This document shows, one piece after another, positions 2,139-9,430 of a stretch of DNA of 64,000 bases. The DNA is from an uncultured bacterium. Its GTDB lineage: Bacteria; Deinococcota; Deinococci; Deinococcales; Trueperaceae. The notes below the pieces were generated by a model. The model ran no database searches and had not been told where the DNA came from. It saw nothing but the letters and a program-made list of their open reading frames with translations. The stretch is taken from contig CAYYOK010000003.1 in the NCBI GenBank assembly GCA_964473205.1, positions 22,417-86,416 on the forward strand. Direction: 5' to 3'. The position numbers and the translations under genes are program-made. The first letter of the stretch is position 1. Each line of letters opens with the position of its first letter.

Positions 2139-3788
2139 TCAGAAGAACAGCGCCCGCGCCCAGGGGCTGATCAGCACCGCTGCCAGCAGCCCGAAGTGGA
2201 GCGTGAGCTGCGCCAGCAGCGCCTCCAGCCCGCTGCGGCGGCGCCTGAACGCGTCGCCGAGCAGCAGCCCGAACACGAGCAGCAGCGCCACCGGGGTGCC
2301 GAGGATCAGCGCGTAGAGGCTGGCCGAGATCACCGTCGCGATGGTCCCGTCGTAACGCTTCGCCAGCGGCGGTATCAGGAACGCCCGGAAGTAGAGCTCG
2401 ATCAGCGGCAGCAAGATCAGCGCAGCGACGACGAAGGGCGTGAGCTGCAGCAGGTCGAGGTAGAACCTGCCGAGGATCCCGTCGAAGGGCCGGTAGTGCA
2501 GGTAGGCCAGCGTCGCGCTGAGCATCAGCAGGCCCCAGCCGACGCCGATGAGGGGCTTCTTGGAGTCGCCGAGCAGCTTCTCGAGCGGCTCGAAGCCGTT
2601 GCCCTGTACCCTGCGCGAGACGAGCAGGGCCAGCAGCACCGCCAGCGTGAGCAGGAACAGCGCGCGCGCCTCTGACCCCTGCGCCGGCGTCAGCAGCACG
2701 AGCGGATTGTCGTAGCGGATGACGCCGAAGAAGATCGCGGCTAGGAGAGCGACGAGCGCAGCGGCGATGAGGATGCCGTAGACCTGCCCGACGCTCCACA
2801 GCCGCGGGCCCTCGATGACCTCCAGCGAGTTAGAGCTCGCGATGCGGCTCTCGCCCACCAGATGCGCCCCGACGACGACGAGCAGAAGCAGCAGCCACAC
2901 GATGGCGTTGCCGGCGACGAACGAGAGCAGGTTCTCGCGCCTGAACGACTCGCGCATCGCGAGGTTGCCAGCCTGCAGGTCGCCCTCGGAGTAGTAGATG
3001 AGGCCGAGCGAACGCAGGTCGCGGCTCTGCGCCTCGACGTCGCGGGAGCCGCGCAGCTGGTGGGCCGTGGCGAGGTTGCCGGCGGCGGCCTCGGTGTTGC
3101 CCTGCGCCCACTGGGCCATGCCGAGCAGCGAGCGCACCGCGGGGTCGCGATCGTCGCCGGTAAGCGTGATGTAGTCGACTAGCTGGCGCTCTGCGGCGAC
3201 GGCGTCGCCGAGACGCAGCCTGAGCCGAGCGTCGGCGAGGCGGTAGTTGACGTCGATCGAGTCGGCCGCGATCGCGGCGCCGTAGTGGTCGAAGGCCTCG
3301 GCGTACTCGCCGCGCTTCTCCGCGATCCGGCCGGCGGTGAGGTTGACGCGGCCCTCCAGCTCGCGGTTGGCGCGATCGATGAGCCGGCTGCGAGCCTGCC
3401 TCAGGTAGCCCTCGGCGTCGAGGACCCGGTCGGAGGCCAAGGCGGCCTCGGCGAGGAGGACCATGGGCCACGCGTCTCCGATGACGTTCTGGACGCGCCG
3501 GAGGCGCGTCTCGGCGCTCGCTACCTCGCCCAGCGCCAGCTCGACGCGCGCCAAGGTCAGGTCGGCATCGGCGAAGCCCGGCCTCACCTGTAACGCGTTG
3601 AGGCAGGCGAGCTTGGCGTTCTCCAGGTCGCCTCTCGCTTCGAACAGGAGGCACTGCTGGTAGTAGCGGTTCTCGTCGAACGCCTGGGCCGACGCGAAGC
3701 TGCCGGCCAGCGCCGCGACCAGAGCCGCGAGCGCCAACACGGCGCGCAGCCGTCCAACGGATCCGAGCAGACCCGAACCTTCTCTCAT
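2139..3788 (-). CDS. TPR-repeat protein fused to a CPBP (CAAX/Abi) intramembrane protease domain
   Basis: 549 aa. Signal/TM N-terminus, then about 280 aa of TPR-like helical repeats (ARGDLENAKLACLNALQVRP, AEKRGEYAEAFDHYGAAI), then a polytopic C-terminal half with the CPBP-like motif ELYFRAFL and a late His-containing helix. Confidence 0.65.
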   Translation of the reverse strand: MREGSGLLGSVGRLRAVLALAALVAALAGSFASAQAFDENRYYQQCLLFEARGDLENAKLACLNALQVRPGFADADLTLARVELALGEVASAETRLRRVQNVIGDAWPMVLLAEAALASDRVLDAEGYLRQARSRLIDRANRELEGRVNLTAGRIAEKRGEYAEAFDHYGAAIAADSIDVNYRLADARLRLRLGDAVAAERQLVDYITLTGDDRDPAVRSLLGMAQWAQGNTEAAAGNLATAHQLRGSRDVEAQSRDLRSLGLIYYSEGDLQAGNLAMRESFRRENLLSFVAGNAIVWLLLLLVVVGAHLVGESRIASSNSLEVIEGPRLWSVGQVYGILIAAALVALLAAIFFGVIRYDNPLVLLTPAQGSEARALFLLTLAVLLALLVSRRVQGNGFEPLEKLLGDSKKPLIGVGWGLLMLSATLAYLHYRPFDGILGRFYLDLLQLTPFVVAALILLPLIELYFRAFLIPPLAKRYDGTIATVISASLYALILGTPVALLLVFGLLLGDAFRRRRSGLEALLAQLTLHFGLLAAVLISPWARALFF

Positions 3789-4106
3789 AACTCCCCTTCA
3801 CAAGCTCAGCGGCCGCCAGCGTACCGAAGGCATCCTGGCTCTCCCTAACGCTCGCTAAGCCACGTCCCGACCACTATTGACCGCCGGGCGCCACGCAGGT
3901 GGTTAGGTCATTCACTTATCTCATACTCGACTTGTCGGGTCTGGGACGGGGCTTATGAAGGTTAACTTAAGCGGCTGTCCGCCGCCCCTAATGGCCGGCG
4001 GTTACGATGCTGTCGTGACCTGTGCATGCGTCCGCAGCGTAAGAGCCGGCTTCGCCCTGGTTGGCGAGCCGTCAGCGGCCGGCCGCAGCCAGGTCGGGGT
4101 CCTGAC

Positions 4107-4475
4107 ATGAGCCTGGTCCAACTGTTCTTCATCATCCAACTCGCCCTGCAACTGCCGGCGATGGCCGACGGCACCGAGGTGCGCCTCGTGTCCCGCGACC
4201 TGCTGACGGTCTACGCCAGCGCCACCGTCGTCGGCGGCAACCTCACGTTCGAAGAGTTCCCGGCGCCAGGCACCGAGGTTCGCGTGCTGATCTTCCCGCC
4301 CGACGCCGGCCCTGCCGAGCAGGCCGAGGCGCTGAGCGGCGCCGCGGCGCTGGCCGGCAGCGTCAGCCTCGCGGGCGACGACGTGATGCTCGTCGATCCG
4401 GACTTGGAGCGTCCGGTCTCCCTCAGAGAGCTCTTGCTGCACGAGCGCAACGTGCGCCTGGTGCTGCCCAGATGA
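4107..4475 (+). CDS. small hypothetical protein with signal-peptide-like N-terminus
   Basis: Internal ATG of track ORF 4026..4475. The N-terminus MSLVQLFFIIQLALQLPAMADG resembles a Sec signal. No recognisable domain. Lies directly upstream of the two-component pair. Confidence 0.35.
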   Translation: MSLVQLFFIIQLALQLPAMADGTEVRLVSRDLLTVYASATVVGGNLTFEEFPAPGTEVRVLIFPPDAGPAEQAEALSGAAALAGSVSLAGDDVMLVDPDLERPVSLRELLLHERNVRLVLPR

Positions 4476-4512
4476 CGCCTAGACAGATGGCACCGTGATG
4501 ACAGGAGGAGAG

Positions 4513-5181
4513 ATGTCACGCAAACGCATCCTCATCGTCGAAGACGACGTCGACATCCTCAGGCTGCTGACCCGCGAGCTCAAGGATGCCGGTTTCGACG
4601 TCCTCGCCTACGAGAGCGGCATTCGTGGCCTCTCGGCCGTGCGCGAGAACCAACCCGACCTGGTGATCTTGGACCTGGGCCTGCCAGACCTGAGCGGACA
4701 GGAGATCGCGCGGCGCGTGCGGCGCACCGGCGACACCCCGATCCTGATCCTGACCGCCGCCGACGAGGTCGGCACCAAGGTCGAGATGCTCAACGCCGGC
4801 GCCGACGACTACCTCGCCAAACCGTTCCACGTGCAGGAGCTGCTCGCCCGCGTGAACGTGCAGCTCCGCAAGCGCACGCTCGGCAGCGCGCTGAAGGTCG
4901 GCGAGATGAGCATCGACCCGGTCAGGCGCCAGGTGAAATGGGCCGAGGAAGAGGTGCGCCTGAGCCCTCGCGAGTACGAGCTGCTCGTCTACCTCGCCGG
5001 TCAGCCCGGCCGCGTCTACAGCCGCAAGGAGATCGAGAACAACGTCTGGGGCGAGGACCTGCCGCCGAGCAGCAACGTCGTGGACGTGCACATCGCCAAC
5101 ATCCGCGGCAAGCTGCGCGACGCCGGCGGTTTCGGGGTCATCCGCACCGTCAGGGGCGTAGGCTACGCGCTCAAGTCCTGA
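4513..5181 (+). CDS. OmpR/PhoB-family response regulator
   Basis: Receiver domain (ILIVEDD, LVILDLGLPDLSG, KPF) plus a winged-helix output (LSPREYELLVYLA, RTVRGVGYAL). ATG 4513 is preceded by AGGAGGAG at 4503..4510. Confidence 0.9.
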   Translation: MSRKRILIVEDDVDILRLLTRELKDAGFDVLAYESGIRGLSAVRENQPDLVILDLGLPDLSGQEIARRVRRTGDTPILILTAADEVGTKVEMLNAGADDYLAKPFHVQELLARVNVQLRKRTLGSALKVGEMSIDPVRRQVKWAEEEVRLSPREYELLVYLAGQPGRVYSRKEIENNVWGEDLPPSSNVVDVHIANIRGKLRDAGGFGVIRTVRGVGYALKS

Positions 5182-5212: not shown

Positions 5213-6565
5213 GTGCCGGAGCTGAACGCCCCGCGCCTGTCGTTGACCTGGAGGGTGGCGCTGCTGGCCGGCGCCGCCACCACGGTCTTGGCGGGGCTGA
5301 CGCTGGTCGTGTCCTACCTGACGGTGCAGAACGGCCTCTACGGCGACCTCAGGCGCGCCCTGCGCGAGGACGCCGACATCCTCGCCGAGCTCTACGACAC
5401 CGGTGGCAGCGCCGCCGAGCTGATCACGGGCCCGACGGGCGGCAGCATCCTGCAGGTCTACGGCGCCAGCGGCGAGCTGCTGGCTGCGTCGCGGCCCGAG
5501 TTCGAGCGCGCCATCGCTGCCATCCCGCCGTCGGACGTGGCCGGGGCGCGGCGCGTGCCGACGCGCTGGAGCGGGAGGCTATCGGGGCGTCAGATGGAGG
5601 TCGCGCTGGCGCCGTTCAGCCTCGGCGTCGTCGCGGTGCTCGCCGACCCGAGCTACATCGCCGACAGCCTGGCCGAGCTCTCCCGCTCGCTCCTGGTGGC
5701 GGGCGGGCTGCTGGTCGTGCTGAGCCTCCTGGTCGGCTACGGCGTGGCAGCCTCGTCATTGCGGCCGGTCGCGAGGCTGGCGAACCGCGCCGCGCAGCTC
5801 GGGCCGGAGCGGCTCGAGCCGATCAGCTACCGCGGCCCCAACGACGAGGTCGGGCGCCTCGCGCACAGCCTCAACGACCTGCTGGCGCGCGTGCGCGACT
5901 CGCGCGACGCTCAGCGGGTGTTCCTCGCCGAGACCAGCCACGAGCTCAGGACCCCGCTCACCAGCCTCACCGGTTTCCTCGACCGCGCAGCGCGGACCTC
6001 CGGTCCCGAGGCCGCCGAGGACCTGCGCGATGCTCAGCGCGTCGCGACGACGATGGCGCGCCTCGTCGAGGACCTGCTGCAGCTCTCGCGCGGCGAGCTG
6101 GTCAAGGAGGCCGGCGTCCACCTCGTCGATCTCGGCGCGGACGTCCTGCGGCCGGTGGCGGCGGAGTTCGACGGCGTCGCGCTCGAGGCCGCCCGCGGCG
6201 TGCTGGTGCTGGGCGACCCGCAGCGGCTCAGACAGCTCGTGCGCAACCTCGTCGCCAACGGCGTTCGCGCCGCCCGCGGCCCGGCCGGCGTCACGCTGCG
6301 ACTGGGCCAGCAGGGCGACGAGGCCGTGGTGAAGGTCGAGGACGACGGTTCCGGCATCGCGCCCGAGCTGCTCGAGAAGATCTTCGAGAAGTTCTACAAG
6401 GGCGCGGGCGGGGGCTCCGGCCTGGGCCTGGCGATCGCCAGGCAGGTGGCGGTGCATCACGGCGGCACGCTAACCGCGGCCAGCCGGCCGGGCGAGACCG
6501 TCTTCGAGCTGAGGCTGCCGCTCGTCACCGAGGAGGACGACGAGGGGTGGACGGGCGAGACATGA
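5213..6565 (+). CDS. sensor histidine kinase (HisKA/HATPase_c)
   Basis: Two TM segments, H-box SHELRTPLTSL, N-box VRNLVANGVRAA, G-boxes DDGSGIAPE and GSGLGLAIAR. GTG start 8 nt after GGAGG. Confidence 0.9.
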   Translation: MPELNAPRLSLTWRVALLAGAATTVLAGLTLVVSYLTVQNGLYGDLRRALREDADILAELYDTGGSAAELITGPTGGSILQVYGASGELLAASRPEFERAIAAIPPSDVAGARRVPTRWSGRLSGRQMEVALAPFSLGVVAVLADPSYIADSLAELSRSLLVAGGLLVVLSLLVGYGVAASSLRPVARLANRAAQLGPERLEPISYRGPNDEVGRLAHSLNDLLARVRDSRDAQRVFLAETSHELRTPLTSLTGFLDRAARTSGPEAAEDLRDAQRVATTMARLVEDLLQLSRGELVKEAGVHLVDLGADVLRPVAAEFDGVALEAARGVLVLGDPQRLRQLVRNLVANGVRAARGPAGVTLRLGQQGDEAVVKVEDDGSGIAPELLEKIFEKFYKGAGGGSGLGLAIARQVAVHHGGTLTAASRPGETVFELRLPLVTEEDDEGWTGET

Positions 6566-6611: not shown

Positions 6612-8318
6612 TCAGAGCTTCGGGAGCGTCACCCCGCGCTGGCCCTGGTACTTGCCCTTGCGGTCGCCATAGGTGATCTCTGGTCTCTCGCCCTGGAAGA
6701 ACAAGAGCTGGACTATGCCCTCGTTGGCGTAGACCTTCGCTGGTAGTGGGGTGGTGTTCGATAGCTCGAGAGTGACATGGCCTTCCCAGCCGGGTTCCAA
6801 AGGCGTTACGTTCGCGACGATGCCACAATTAGCCACGAAGACGCCGGCCTCGAGGGCGAAGTTGCCGGCCTCGGGGACCGTCAGGCAGTACACGTCGTGA
6901 TCGCCCTTCAGTTCGCGCACACTGCTTACCTTGTGGTTTTTCTTCAGGTCGCCGCGTTTGGGTCCACTCCGAGCGAGGCCCCGATGGGCTGCTATCACGT
7001 CAGGGAAGCGGCGGAACACGCTTCTGTCGCAACTCAGAAGGCGCGCCGCGCCGCGGATCGAGCCGGTTTCGTCGAGCGCGGCCCTGACTCTGTCGGCATC
7101 GATGTGCCGTAAGAGCCTGATTCGCCTTGCGCGCTCGGCTTGCGCCACTCGGCGGGTATCGCTCGCCTGAGACCACGCCTGTCGCGACCGGTCACCCTGA
7201 GCCAGTCTTGCCGAATCGTTCCCCTCCCAGAACACCGCCTGCCTATGGCGCTGGGCTTCGCGCTCACTCTCGGTCCAACGCTGCCGATGGATCTCGAGGA
7301 GCTTGGAACGGGTTGCCGCGTAAGCCTCATCGTGCCAGAAGTTCCTTGCGCGCCGGGCCTGCTCGGCTCTGAACTGGGCTATCCAAGCGGGATCCGCCGC
7401 CAGGCGTCGGAAAGCCTCCTTGATAGCCTCAGAGTGTTCGGCTGGGTCGAAGTCCTCACCGAAGGTCAGCGAGTTGTGATGTTTGATGTGCTCGGCCGCG
7501 GACATGCGCACCAGGTTCCATGGGTTGTTGTTGCGCCTGTCGTGGTCTACGTGGTGGCGATGCGTGCCCGGCTCCGCCTCGTACACACTGTTCCTAAGGT
7601 TCCACTCGTCCGCCAGGCGATGCGTCGGGTAGTAGTTGCCTGTCAGCGGCTGGTAGGTCATCTCGTAACCGCGGTAAGGCGCGCGGTAGAGAGGCATCAG
7701 CGCGTCGTTCGGACGCAGGTCGGCGGCCTGAGTCCAGCTTCCGTCGCGGCGCATGAAGTCGTGGTCAGGGGTAGCTCTGATGCTCTGGCCGTCGTCCAAG
7801 GTGATCTCTAGGAGCGAGTCGCGACCGATCAGCCTTGGCGAGTCCAGAAGCGTCACCATCAGTTGACCGTTCTGGCCGAGAGAGTAGCCCCACGCCAACT
7901 CGCCGTCGCGATGCCGATCCGCGAGCTCCTCGAGGGTAGGAGCCGTTCCGTCTACCAACGCCACACGTGTGTCGGCGCTGAAGCACCTCGCGTAGGAGGA
8001 CTTCCCCAACGCGATCACCATCGTGTCTTCAGGGATCTTCAAGTACTCCACGGAACGCGTCAGCACGAAACTGTTCGGCGGGATGATGCAGGTGTCGTCA
8101 CTAGACTCGACGAGGCTGCGCGTGTCGAAGTTCTTCGGATCGACGACCGTGTTGAACGCGTTGACGAAGATGCGCCACTCGGGGGCGGCGCGCAGGTCGT
8201 AACCGAAGCTGGATAGCCCGTAGCTGATGACGCCGTCGCGCACCAACCGGTCCTCGAAGGGCGTGATCATGCCCTCTTGCGCCCGCTCCCTGATCCAACG
8301 GTCGGACTTGATGCTCAT
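6612..8318 (-). CDS. dcd: dCTP deaminase precursor interrupted by an intein
   Basis: N-extein [22 protein letters not shown]...[11 protein letters not shown] (111 aa) and C-extein [44 protein letters not shown]...(71 aa) together make a normal 182-aa Dcd. Start taken at ATG 8318 rather than the upstream track start 8423. Confidence 0.85.
6828..7985 (-). mobile_element. intein (386 codons) with HNH homing-endonuclease domain inside dcd
   Basis: Cys1 codon at 7985..7983 ([13 protein letters not shown], block A), TxxH block B (ATPDHDF), HNH motif [31 protein letters not shown] at 7473..7562. Blocks F/G are [23 protein letters not shown], ending in Asn (6830..6828) and followed by Cys+1 (6827..6825). 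Confidence 0.8.
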
Positions 8319-8548
8319 AGCGAGCAGTCTAGTCTGTCGCGCGGTCATGGGACTGGAGTACTTAGGTCTGCGCCGAGCAGCTTTAGGCTCGAACCTAGTT
8401 GACCGCCGGGCTCGTGTCGGCACGCGTCTAGGTCGACCGCAGGAGATCCGGCTGCAAGATCGACGACGCCGGCGGCGATCTACGCCGCGGCATCGGTGAG
8501 CGCTTCCTGATTACAATGTGATATCATGATGATTGCAAGGAGGATCTC

Positions 8549-9430
8549 ATGATCCGTGTGCAGGAGAAAGCGGCTTTCAAGGTCAACGGCTTCCCGTTTC
8601 TCGTCTTGGTAGTGGCGATCTTGGTCGCGGCCGGCTGGGTGTTCATCAGCGGAGTTGCGGCTCCGGTGGGCGGAGGGTCCAGGGTTCTGCTGGGCATCGC
8701 GCTCCTGGTCATCGCCCTGGTGATGTTCGGCGGGTTCTTCACGGTCCAGCCCAACGAGTCGCGCGTCCTCACCTTCTTCGGCACCTACACGGGCAGCGTG
8801 CGGGACTCCGGGTTCTGGTTCACCAACCCGTTCACGATCAAGAAGCACGTCAGCCTCAGGGTCCGCAACTTCAACAGCGAGAGGCTGAAGGTCAACGACG
8901 CCGACGGCAACCCGGTGGAGATCGCCACCGTGGTCGTGTGGCGCGTCATCGAGTCGGCCAAGGCCGTGTTCGACGTCGACGACTACGAGCAGTTCGTCGA
9001 CATCCAGGCCGAGACCGCCCTGCGCAACCTCGCCACCCGCTACCCCTACGACGCCACCGGGATAGAGCGCCCCAGCCTGCGCGAGAACCCCGAGGAGCTG
9101 GCGCAGGCGCTCAAGTCCGAGCTCGACGCGCGGCTGGAGATCGCGGGGGTCGACGTGATGGAGGCGCGGCTGACGCACCTCGCCTACGCGCCCGAGATCG
9201 CGCACACGATGCTCAGGCGCCAGCAGGCTCAGGCCGTGGTGGCCGCGCGCAAGCTGATCGTCGAGGCTGCTGTCGGCATGGTCGAGGACGCGCTCGGCGG
9301 CCTGGCATCCAGCGGGGTCGAGTTGGACACCGACAAGCGCGCCGCCATGGCCAACAACCTGATGGTGGCCCTCACCAGCGACTCCGGCGTCTCGCCCGTG
9401 ATCAACACCGGGACGCTCTACGGTGGTTGA
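8549..9430 (+). CDS. SPFH/band-7 domain membrane protein
   Basis: 293 aa. Two N-terminal TM helices, then an SPFH-like core (FFTVQPNESRVLTFFG...RNFNSERLKVNDADGNPVEIATVVVWRV). AAGGAGG RBS upstream. Confidence 0.8.
   Translation: MIRVQEKAAFKVNGFPFLVLVVAILVAAGWVFISGVAAPVGGGSRVLLGIALLVIALVMFGGFFTVQPNESRVLTFFGTYTGSVRDSGFWFTNPFTIKKHVSLRVRNFNSERLKVNDADGNPVEIATVVVWRVIESAKAVFDVDDYEQFVDIQAETALRNLATRYPYDATGIERPSLRENPEELAQALKSELDARLEIAGVDVMEARLTHLAYAPEIAHTMLRRQQAQAVVAARKLIVEAAVGMVEDALGGLASSGVELDTDKRAAMANNLMVALTSDSGVSPVINTGTLYGG

Follow-up and report, generated by a model that had tools for sequence, protein, structure and literature searches.

In the analysed window, a stretch of 64,000 nucleotides of contig CAYYOK010000003.1 from an uncultured bacterium of the Trueperaceae, the gene encoding dCTP deaminase (dcd) hosts an in-frame insert organized as an intein. 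The precursor gene spans positions 6612..8318 of the minus strand, and is made of 568 codons plus the stop. Translation likely starts at the ATG at 8318 (MSIKSD...); this start is common to homologous proteins and to the gene call (569 aa) on contig L082, which carries a related intein-bearing locus. The open reading frame (ORF) delimited mechanically is larger (6612..8423, minus strand), and begins with a GTG at 8423, 35 codons upstream of the MSIKSD start. The resulting N-terminal extension (8319..8423, minus strand) is missing from most homologues, and is unlikely to be translated.

The 386 codons of the insert lie in frame between ...GKSSYAR and CGIVANV..., and separate the deaminase into two exteins. 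The N-extein (7986..8318, minus strand) encodes 111 aa, corresponding to Dcd residues 1-111, and terminates with the nucleotide-binding loop GKSSYAR. It is recognized by the DCD (PF22769) and TIGR02274 models, and aligned to the solved structures PDB 4dhk and 3km3. The C-extein (6615..6827, minus strand) encodes the remaining 71 aa, Dcd residues 112-182, of which the first is Cys+1, and is similarly covered by TIGR02274 and by the structure alignment. The intein (6828..7985, minus strand) extends for 386 aa from Cys1 to Asn386. Upon removal of the insert, the exteins form a 182-aa protein, which matches the dCTP deaminase equivalog TIGR02274 as one contiguous stretch (profile positions 7-179 of 180), scoring 156.2 bits (cut-off 92.8). 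Solved Dcd structures align end to end with this protein (PDB 4dhk, E 1e-73), and in these alignments GKS(S/T)YAR-CGI is an uninterrupted conserved segment. An earlier sequence-only reading had placed the insert at 6828-7985, between YAR and CG, and had predicted a spliced product of 182 aa. The placement is exact to the base, and the product aligns end to end with intein-less Dcd proteins as well. The G+C content is 61% in the exteins and 64% in the intein, and ranges from 67 to 74% in the neighbours, with 71% around 9.0-9.2 kb, close to what had been estimated from a few lines of sequence.

The splicing domain

The insert was compared with hidden Markov models of Hint domains and inteins, a check which had been proposed in the sequence-only reading. 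Both the Intein_splicing model PF14890 (60.2 bits, cut-off 35.8) and TIGR01445 (33.9 bits, cut-off 24.5; intein residues 1-78) score above their cut-offs, and TIGR01443 matches the C-terminal lobe in the context of the precursor (19.5 bits, cut-off 15.6). The strongest NCBIfam match, at 118 bits, is to the intein part of NF052663, a model of intein-containing proteins of the RtcB family. Since both the intein models and the contiguous TIGR02274 match exceed the cut-offs, the insert is not a chance match.

The HINT domain is split in two lobes. The N-lobe (7692..7985, minus strand; intein residues 1-98) starts with block A, Cys1-Phe-x-x-Asp-Thr, and corresponds to the TIGR01445 match and to beta-strands of the structural model. 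It includes block B, Thr72-x-x-His75 (7761..7772, minus strand; ATPDHDF). The C-lobe (6828..6950, minus strand; residues 346-386) is covered by TIGR01443, contains blocks F and G, and terminates with the penultimate Ala385 followed by Asn386. Position F:4 of block F is occupied by Cys367 (6885..6887, minus strand), in a VYCL string aligned on VYDL of the Pho RadA and DnaE inteins, two solved inteins which both lobes match by sequence. Cys1, Thr72, His75, Asn386 and Cys+1, and likewise Cys367, are invariant in 48 aligned sequences. All the strings on which the intein had originally been recognized (Cys1, the TxxH block ATPDHDF, the terminal Asn and Cys+1) are thus in place.

The intein model obtained with AlphaFold (AF2), built on 48 sequences, has a mean predicted local distance difference test score (pLDDT) of 87.8, and features beta-rich N and C lobes at either side of a helical module. 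Foldseek retrieves with it the solved mini-inteins Npu DnaE, Mtu RecA and Ssp DnaB (E 4e-7 to 1e-5). The template modelling scores to solved inteins, normalised on the target, are 0.5-0.6, and are about 0.6 for Npu DnaE and Mtu RecA. Class 1 inteins occupy the first places among the fold matches, ahead of the class 3 MchDnaB1 intein.

It is extremely improbable that dcd has been inactivated by the insertion and is a pseudogene, or that the insert is an accessory domain of Dcd which does not splice. Nothing speaks positively for these alternatives; one may only quote the non-canonical assisting residues described below, and the fact that splicing of the window allele is a prediction. The frame is open over all 568 codons, the exteins are under very strong purifying selection, and neither the HINT fold nor any of the four nucleophile or key positions is disrupted. 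The sequence-only reading had considered that Dcd homologues might carry a non-splicing domain at this point. The insert interrupts instead a loop which is contiguous in solved Dcd structures, and intein-less alleles read YAR-CG. Moreover, the product of a cyanophage orthologue has the size expected after splicing, and the 64-kb window, the part of the genome which was searched, contains no other dcd-like ORF. Both the pseudogene and the non-splicing insert were rejected on the grounds of open frame, loop contiguity in the structures, HINT fold and selection on the exteins.

Residues known to assist splicing are largely replaced in the clade to which the intein belongs. The presence of Ala in place of the usual penultimate His (position G:6), pointed out in the sequence-only reading, is confirmed, but is not peculiar to the window copy, as the position is hypervariable. 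Among 112 clade members, Ser is found in 42, Arg in 27, His in 19, Lys in 9, Gln in 7, Ala and Gly in 3 each, Leu and Glu in 1 each. Other positions are fixed or nearly so. G:5 is Val in 112/112 members, F:13, the residue preceding the Asn-Phe of block F, is Gly in 111/112, and block B reads T-P/E-D-H-x-F. F:4, aligned with Asp in the V-Y-D-L string of the RadA and DnaE inteins, is Cys in all the 101 members readable by pattern. Splicing in the absence of a penultimate His is a known polymorphism, and Cys is the second most common residue at F:4, mostly in class 3 inteins (PMC4031507; PMC2807308). In 150 representatives of related HNH_3 inteins, G:6 is His in 91/100 sequences with Asp at F:4, and in 18/52 with Cys at F:4, and Cys at F:4 accompanies also the loss of His at F:13; these are raw counts, uncorrected for shared ancestry.

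Inteins of class 3 lack the N-terminal nucleophile, and are marked by the WCT triplet, formed by Trp B:12, Cys F:4 and Thr G:5, and by Ser or Thr at the +1 position (PMC2807308; PMC5222942). Membership in this class, raised by Cys at F:4, was rejected. The window intein shares this Cys with the MP-Be DnaB, Msm/Mch DnaB-1 and Dra Snf2 inteins, but differs from them because it has an invariant Cys1, Phe at B:12, Val at G:5 and Cys+1. The host also differs, being Dcd and not the P-loop of a helicase or terminase. The intein is not filed as class 3, because the N-terminal nucleophile, the B:12, the G:5 and the +1 residues all disagree with the signature.

It may still be asked whether Cys367 takes a direct part in splicing. 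According to this hypothesis, Dcd-type HNH inteins would be a mechanistic sub-class, defined by invariant Cys F:4, Gly F:13, a free penultimate residue, Cys1 and Cys+1. Cys367 would act either as a class-3-like nucleophile, forming a branched intermediate at block F, or within a triad with Cys1 and Cys+1, working as a redox- or zinc-sensitive switch. The substitution of Asp by Cys at F:4, invariant in a clade which includes the phage orthologue reported to splice, the concurrent loss of the G:6 and F:13 His in related HNH_3 inteins, and the frequency of Cys F:4 in class 3 inteins (PMC2807308; PMC4031507) all fit the hypothesis. However, the rest of the class 3 signature is absent, the intein retains the canonical Thr-x-x-His, its fold is closest to that of class 1 inteins, and the covariation count ignores shared ancestry. 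A direct role of Cys367 is, on balance, quite doubtful. If the switch were real, the maturation of dCTP deaminase, and hence the supply of dUMP and dTTP, would be conditional on the state of the cell.

The best-supported reading is that the intein splices by the standard class 1 pathway, relying on Cys1, Thr72/His75, Cys+1 and Asn386, and that HNH-mediated homing follows. The steps set out here are deduced from the conserved residues and from the standard pathway. Translation of dcd would yield a precursor of 568 aa, in which the HINT lobes (intein residues 1-98 and 346-386) would fold together. An N-S acyl shift at Cys1, assisted by Thr72 and His75, would be followed by the transfer of the N-extein to Cys+1. 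Cyclisation of Asn386 would then free the intein, and an S-N shift would remake the peptide bond, leaving an active Dcd of 182 aa. The constellation found in this clade, if efficient, might provide a protein-engineering scaffold able to splice without Asp F:4, His F:13 and His G:6.

The predicted endonuclease module

The segment between the two HINT lobes (6951..7691, minus strand; residues 99-345) is a predicted endonuclease and DNA-binding module, as indicated by matches to PHROG and BFVD entries and to I-HmuI; when modelled with AF2 on its own, it reaches a pLDDT of 89. The HNH (beta-beta-alpha-metal) core spans 7473..7565 of the minus strand (residues 141-171), and reads T-H142-R-H144-H145-x-D147...N152-N153-x-P155-x-N157...H166...H170-N171. 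The HNH string had been correctly spotted in the sequence-only reading; its end had been set at 7562, one codon short. In the model, the beta-beta-alpha element (141-175) is formed by strands 141-145 and 158-162 and by helix 163-175. H142, R143, H144, D147, N152, P155 and N157 are invariant in the 48 sequences, and H145, H166, H170 and N171 are conserved in at least 90% of them.

An Arg-rich, all-helical linker region (7116..7460, minus strand; residues 176-290, with model helices at 181-290) separates the core from the C-terminal end of the module, and is the least conserved part of the intein. A helix-turn-helix (HTH)-like DNA-binding motif follows (6984..7097, minus strand; residues 297-334, folded as short helices in the model), which includes a conserved string of 21 aa at 7002..7064. 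G308, S309, R311, A314, L317, D320, R321, R326 and F327 are invariant in the 48 sequences, that of phage CL131 included. The motif, GSIRGAAR...DRS-FRRFP, has a weak Foldseek likeness to the HTH domains of LysR, Fis and Tc3. Both the Arg-rich helical region and the HTH-like end had been anticipated from the sequence, and correspond to the model helices at 181-290 and 297-334, with the HTH likeness being weak.

Three PHROG families of HNH endonucleases match the module (E 1.2e-7, 7e-6 and 2e-5), and among the viral structures of BFVD many phage HNH and homing endonucleases are retrieved (E 2e-4 to 1e-2, probability 1.00). LAGLIDADG families gave no match to the intein at E <= 1. The notion that the endonuclease is of the HNH and not of the LAGLIDADG type, already put forward in the sequence-only reading, is therefore supported by sequence and model comparisons; cleavage activity is predicted.

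The best match among solved structures is I-HmuI (PDB 1u3e), from phage SPO1, in which an HNH core is similarly followed by helices and by a C-terminal HTH. The match is weak (E 0.15, 90 columns, 21% identity). I-HmuI differs also because it is free-standing and intron-encoded, whereas the window module resides within a HINT domain, and because it has no counterpart of the long Arg-rich arm. By analogy, I-HmuI is likely a working model for the recognition and cutting of DNA by the window module. Once freed, the 386-aa intein would act as a homing endonuclease, with the HNH core cutting an intein-less dcd allele. The putative cut would fall near AAG TCN TCN TAC GCN CGN | TGY GGN ATC GTN GCN AAC, i.e. 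around AAGTCNTCNTACGCNCGN|TGYGGNATCGT. The helical arm and the C-terminal HTH would serve to recognize the sequence, in the manner of I-HmuI. Finally, the cut allele would be repaired on the intein-bearing one, thereby acquiring the intein together with some flanking extein.

Relatives, empty sites and the proposed homing cycle

The sequence-only reading had regarded dcd as a possibly new intein host. This does not hold, because a Dcd intein had already been reported (PMC5714182; PMC6293099). Jablonska et al. 2017 list a 'deoxycytidine triphosphate deaminase intein', along with the GyrB intein, in the His-Me finger family 22, PF13392 HNH_3 (PMC5714182). Sulcius et al. 2018 describe, in the dCTP deaminase of the Aphanizomenon cyanophage vB_AphaS-CL131 (gp069, MG209611), an intein which combines HintN and HNH_3 domains, and cite earlier reports in Proteobacteria and Chloroflexi (PMC6293099). 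The tagged CL131 product ran in E. coli at the size of the spliced enzyme, and self-excision was reported (PMC6293099). The Dcd HNH intein at YAR|C is hence already described and widespread, with at least 120 protein clusters from many phyla, and the window copy is one more intact member. Though unusual among textbook intein hosts, dcd is not a new one: papers have described the Dcd intein at this site, and hundreds of database entries contain it.

The phage gp069 protein aligns over 98% of the window precursor, with 35.6% identity overall. The two have in common the dCTP deaminase host, the insertion point (…YAR|CF…VxN|CG…), the succession of HINT, HNH_3, helical region and GSIRGAAR-L-x-DRS-FRRFP HTH, the Cys at F:4 and a penultimate residue other than His (Lys in the phage). 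The CL131 intein differs in being shorter (351 aa) and lacking much of the helical linker, and in being viral and not chromosomal; it is also the sole member with experimental evidence. As to the HNH_3 group of Jablonska et al., the window intein fits in it as a Dcd intein with a HNH_3-type core, having relatives in GyrB, T4-like portal proteins and ResIII helicases, but its HNH_3 score does not reach the Pfam cut-off. Asp F:4, His F:13 and His G:6, replaced in the Dcd clade, are mostly retained by the GyrB, portal and helicase relatives.

A search with the intein only retrieved 2461 proteins at E <= 1e-5. The best 120 clusters are all organized as DCD + Intein_splicing + DCD, measure about 560 aa, and share 57-88% identity with the query. 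They come from Trueperaceae, Deinococcus, Anaerolineae, Gemmatimonadota, Gammaproteobacteria, Planctomycetota and Acidobacteriota. The insertion point is YAR|C in 16/16 aligned homologues, that of cyanophage CL131 gp069 included. A search for inteins at this very site had been recommended in the sequence-only reading. Most intein-bearing entries are named just 'dCTP deaminase' or 'hypothetical protein'; for annotation purposes, the 568-aa product is to be read as an enzyme of 182 aa plus what is very probably a mobile element.

Empty sites are also common. In a search with the spliced exteins, over 120 Dcd proteins without intein were identified, which measure 182 aa and share 83-92% identity; several of them are labelled Trueperaceae. 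In a genome scan, from which 80 loci were kept, none of the window's own genome, intein-less alleles were found in Truepera sp. (88%), Trueperaceae, Thermus caliditerrae and Deinococcus marmoris, with a junction reading YAR-CG. The nearest homologues, too, point to the Trueperaceae as the family of the window. The order of genes hydrolase-Band_7-dcd-histidine kinase-response regulator is common to the window, to the intein-bearing locus L082 and to the intein-less locus L084. The three represent a clean presence/absence polymorphism of the intein at one locus. The interpretation of the insert as a homing intein, proposed in the sequence-only reading, is supported by these intein-less orthologues in the same synteny, in addition to the profile matches, the fold and the HNH module.

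Altered copies of the intein have been identified at other loci. In L005 (2775-4205) the second half of the HNH motif is lost. L007 (3001-4152) hosts at YAR|C a mini-intein of about 200 aa without HNH match. In L006 (3001-4177) the intein is frameshifted, being either a pseudogene or an assembly error. Judged by sequence, these forms look like the stages expected in a homing cycle. Intact, truncated, mini and frameshifted copies, along with empty sites, one of which is syntenic, make up a clean natural example of such a cycle.

The comparison of the window with L082 is informative on the exchange of alleles. Flanking genes share 94-95% nucleotide identity, and have about 0.16-0.17 synonymous substitutions per synonymous site (dS). 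The intein shares 81% nucleotide identity, with a dS of about 1.1; values above 1 are saturated, and only the ranking of regions is reliable. The N-extein and the C-extein have intermediate dS values, 0.65 and 0.27, respectively. In a sliding comparison, raised divergence marks a tract from about 6860 to 8750, in which nucleotide identity drops to 76-88% versus 90-99% in the flanks. The tract spans the intein, the N-extein, the upstream intergenic region and the 5' end (about the first 200 nucleotides) of the Band_7 gene. On the simplest reading, the intein alleles of the window and L082 are of different descent, through recombination or homing with co-conversion of the flanks. The tract suggests a recent allele exchange, in which the intein allele may have been replaced with asymmetric co-conversion. 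Like the series of altered copies, it is a sign that the element is still mobile. The ratio of nonsynonymous to synonymous substitution rates (omega) is 0.07 for the intein, 0.027 for the HNH core and 0.10 for the helical linker; it is 0.024 for the N-extein, and the C-extein shows no amino acid change. Because omega is low in exteins, intein and HNH core, both the Dcd enzyme and the endonuclease appear to be under purifying selection.

The G+C content at third codon positions (GC3) is 0.77 in the intein, 0.79 in the C-extein, 0.90 in the N-extein and 0.89-0.95 in neighbouring genes, these segments being short. The low GC3 of the intein and C-extein is suggestive, and compatible with a foreign origin; samples are small, and no conclusion rests on it.

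Taken together, the anatomy, the family membership, the fold, the conservation and the patchy distribution argue that the insert is, very probably, a mobile class-1-type intein of the HNH_3 family, which a Trueperaceae-like bacterium carries in its chromosomal dcd gene, at the nucleotide-binding loop (GKSSYAR|CG) of dCTP deaminase; the order of the steps, the endonuclease activity and the target are deduced. The picture of a homing cycle rests on the intact, truncated, mini and frameshifted copies found elsewhere, and on the divergent tract centred on the intein in the comparison with L082. Several points weigh against this interpretation. Three residues which usually assist splicing are replaced, Asp by Cys at F:4, His by Gly at F:13 and the G:6 residue by Ala, and therefore the chemistry of splicing may differ in detail from that of textbook class 1 inteins. 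The evidence of splicing from CL131 is one size estimate by sodium dodecyl sulfate polyacrylamide gel electrophoresis (SDS-PAGE), obtained for an orthologue with 36% identity. HNH_3 (PF13392) matches the intein at 19.7 bits (E 7e-4), below the cut-off of 24.8, whereas relatives in the same intein family score 33-69 bits, above it. The fold match of the module to I-HmuI is not significant, and the intein dS is saturated. Finally, the searched literature contains neither a cleavage assay nor a target site for any Dcd intein.

The last point, together with the decayed copies at L005, L007 and L006, is what one would quote for an intein which still splices but no longer homes. The element would be a vertically inherited passenger, and the HNH and HTH regions would be kept for folding or for regulatory DNA binding, or would be starting to decay. 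This is unlikely. All the invariant HNH and HTH residues are intact in the window copy, no part of the intein is more constrained than the HNH core, and the intein is patchily distributed among close relatives. Its divergence from L082, far larger than that of the flanks, is moreover better fitted by allele exchange than by vertical descent.

Gene surroundings and related inteins

The dcd gene lies in an ordinary chromosomal context, between the genes of a two-component pair and housekeeping genes. An OmpR-type response regulator (4495..5181) and the histidine kinase which pairs with it (5213..6565) are found at one side. A Band_7/SPFH gene (8549..9430) is found at the other, and genes for an alpha/beta hydrolase, YceG and alanyl-tRNA synthetase are located further beyond. 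Three plus-strand ORFs lying across dcd (6777..7112, 7140..7811 and 7863..8216) have no Pfam match, and are the usual antisense ORFs of G+C-rich DNA. No Rfam family and no promoter- or terminator-like site were detected in the dcd region, and no second intein was found in the 64-kb window. An ORF of 549 aa at 2139..3788 (minus strand) has no Pfam family at E <= 1e-5.

A different Dcd intein was found in two contigs of Proteobacteria metagenome-assembled genomes, L013 and L066 (both 3001-4791). It is of the LAGLIDADG_3 type (66 bits in L013), and is inserted at GK|STYAR. Host protein and loop are the same as for the HNH intein, and the site is five residues upstream. The two elements are otherwise unrelated: this one has a LAGLIDADG_3 endonuclease, keeps Asp at F:4, and its block G is the canonical VHN|S. 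The Dcd loop GKS(S/T)YAR is thus a hot spot with two intein sites, one for HNH inteins at YAR|C, the other for LAGLIDADG inteins at GK|S.

The related HNH_3 inteins (P0241-P0390) are hosted by GyrB, T4-like portal proteins and ResIII helicases, and often 2-3 inteins are found in the same protein. Some related proteins of 2000-3000 aa feature 5-8 intein-matching stretches. A protein of Bacillus phage SP-15 (KT624200 / NC_031245, 12609-13775), denominated 'hypothetical' or 'Hint domain-containing', matches only the intein part of the precursor (residues 101-498, 25% identity), and, among viral folds, is the best match to the endonuclease module; a related HNH intein probably resides in this phage gene.

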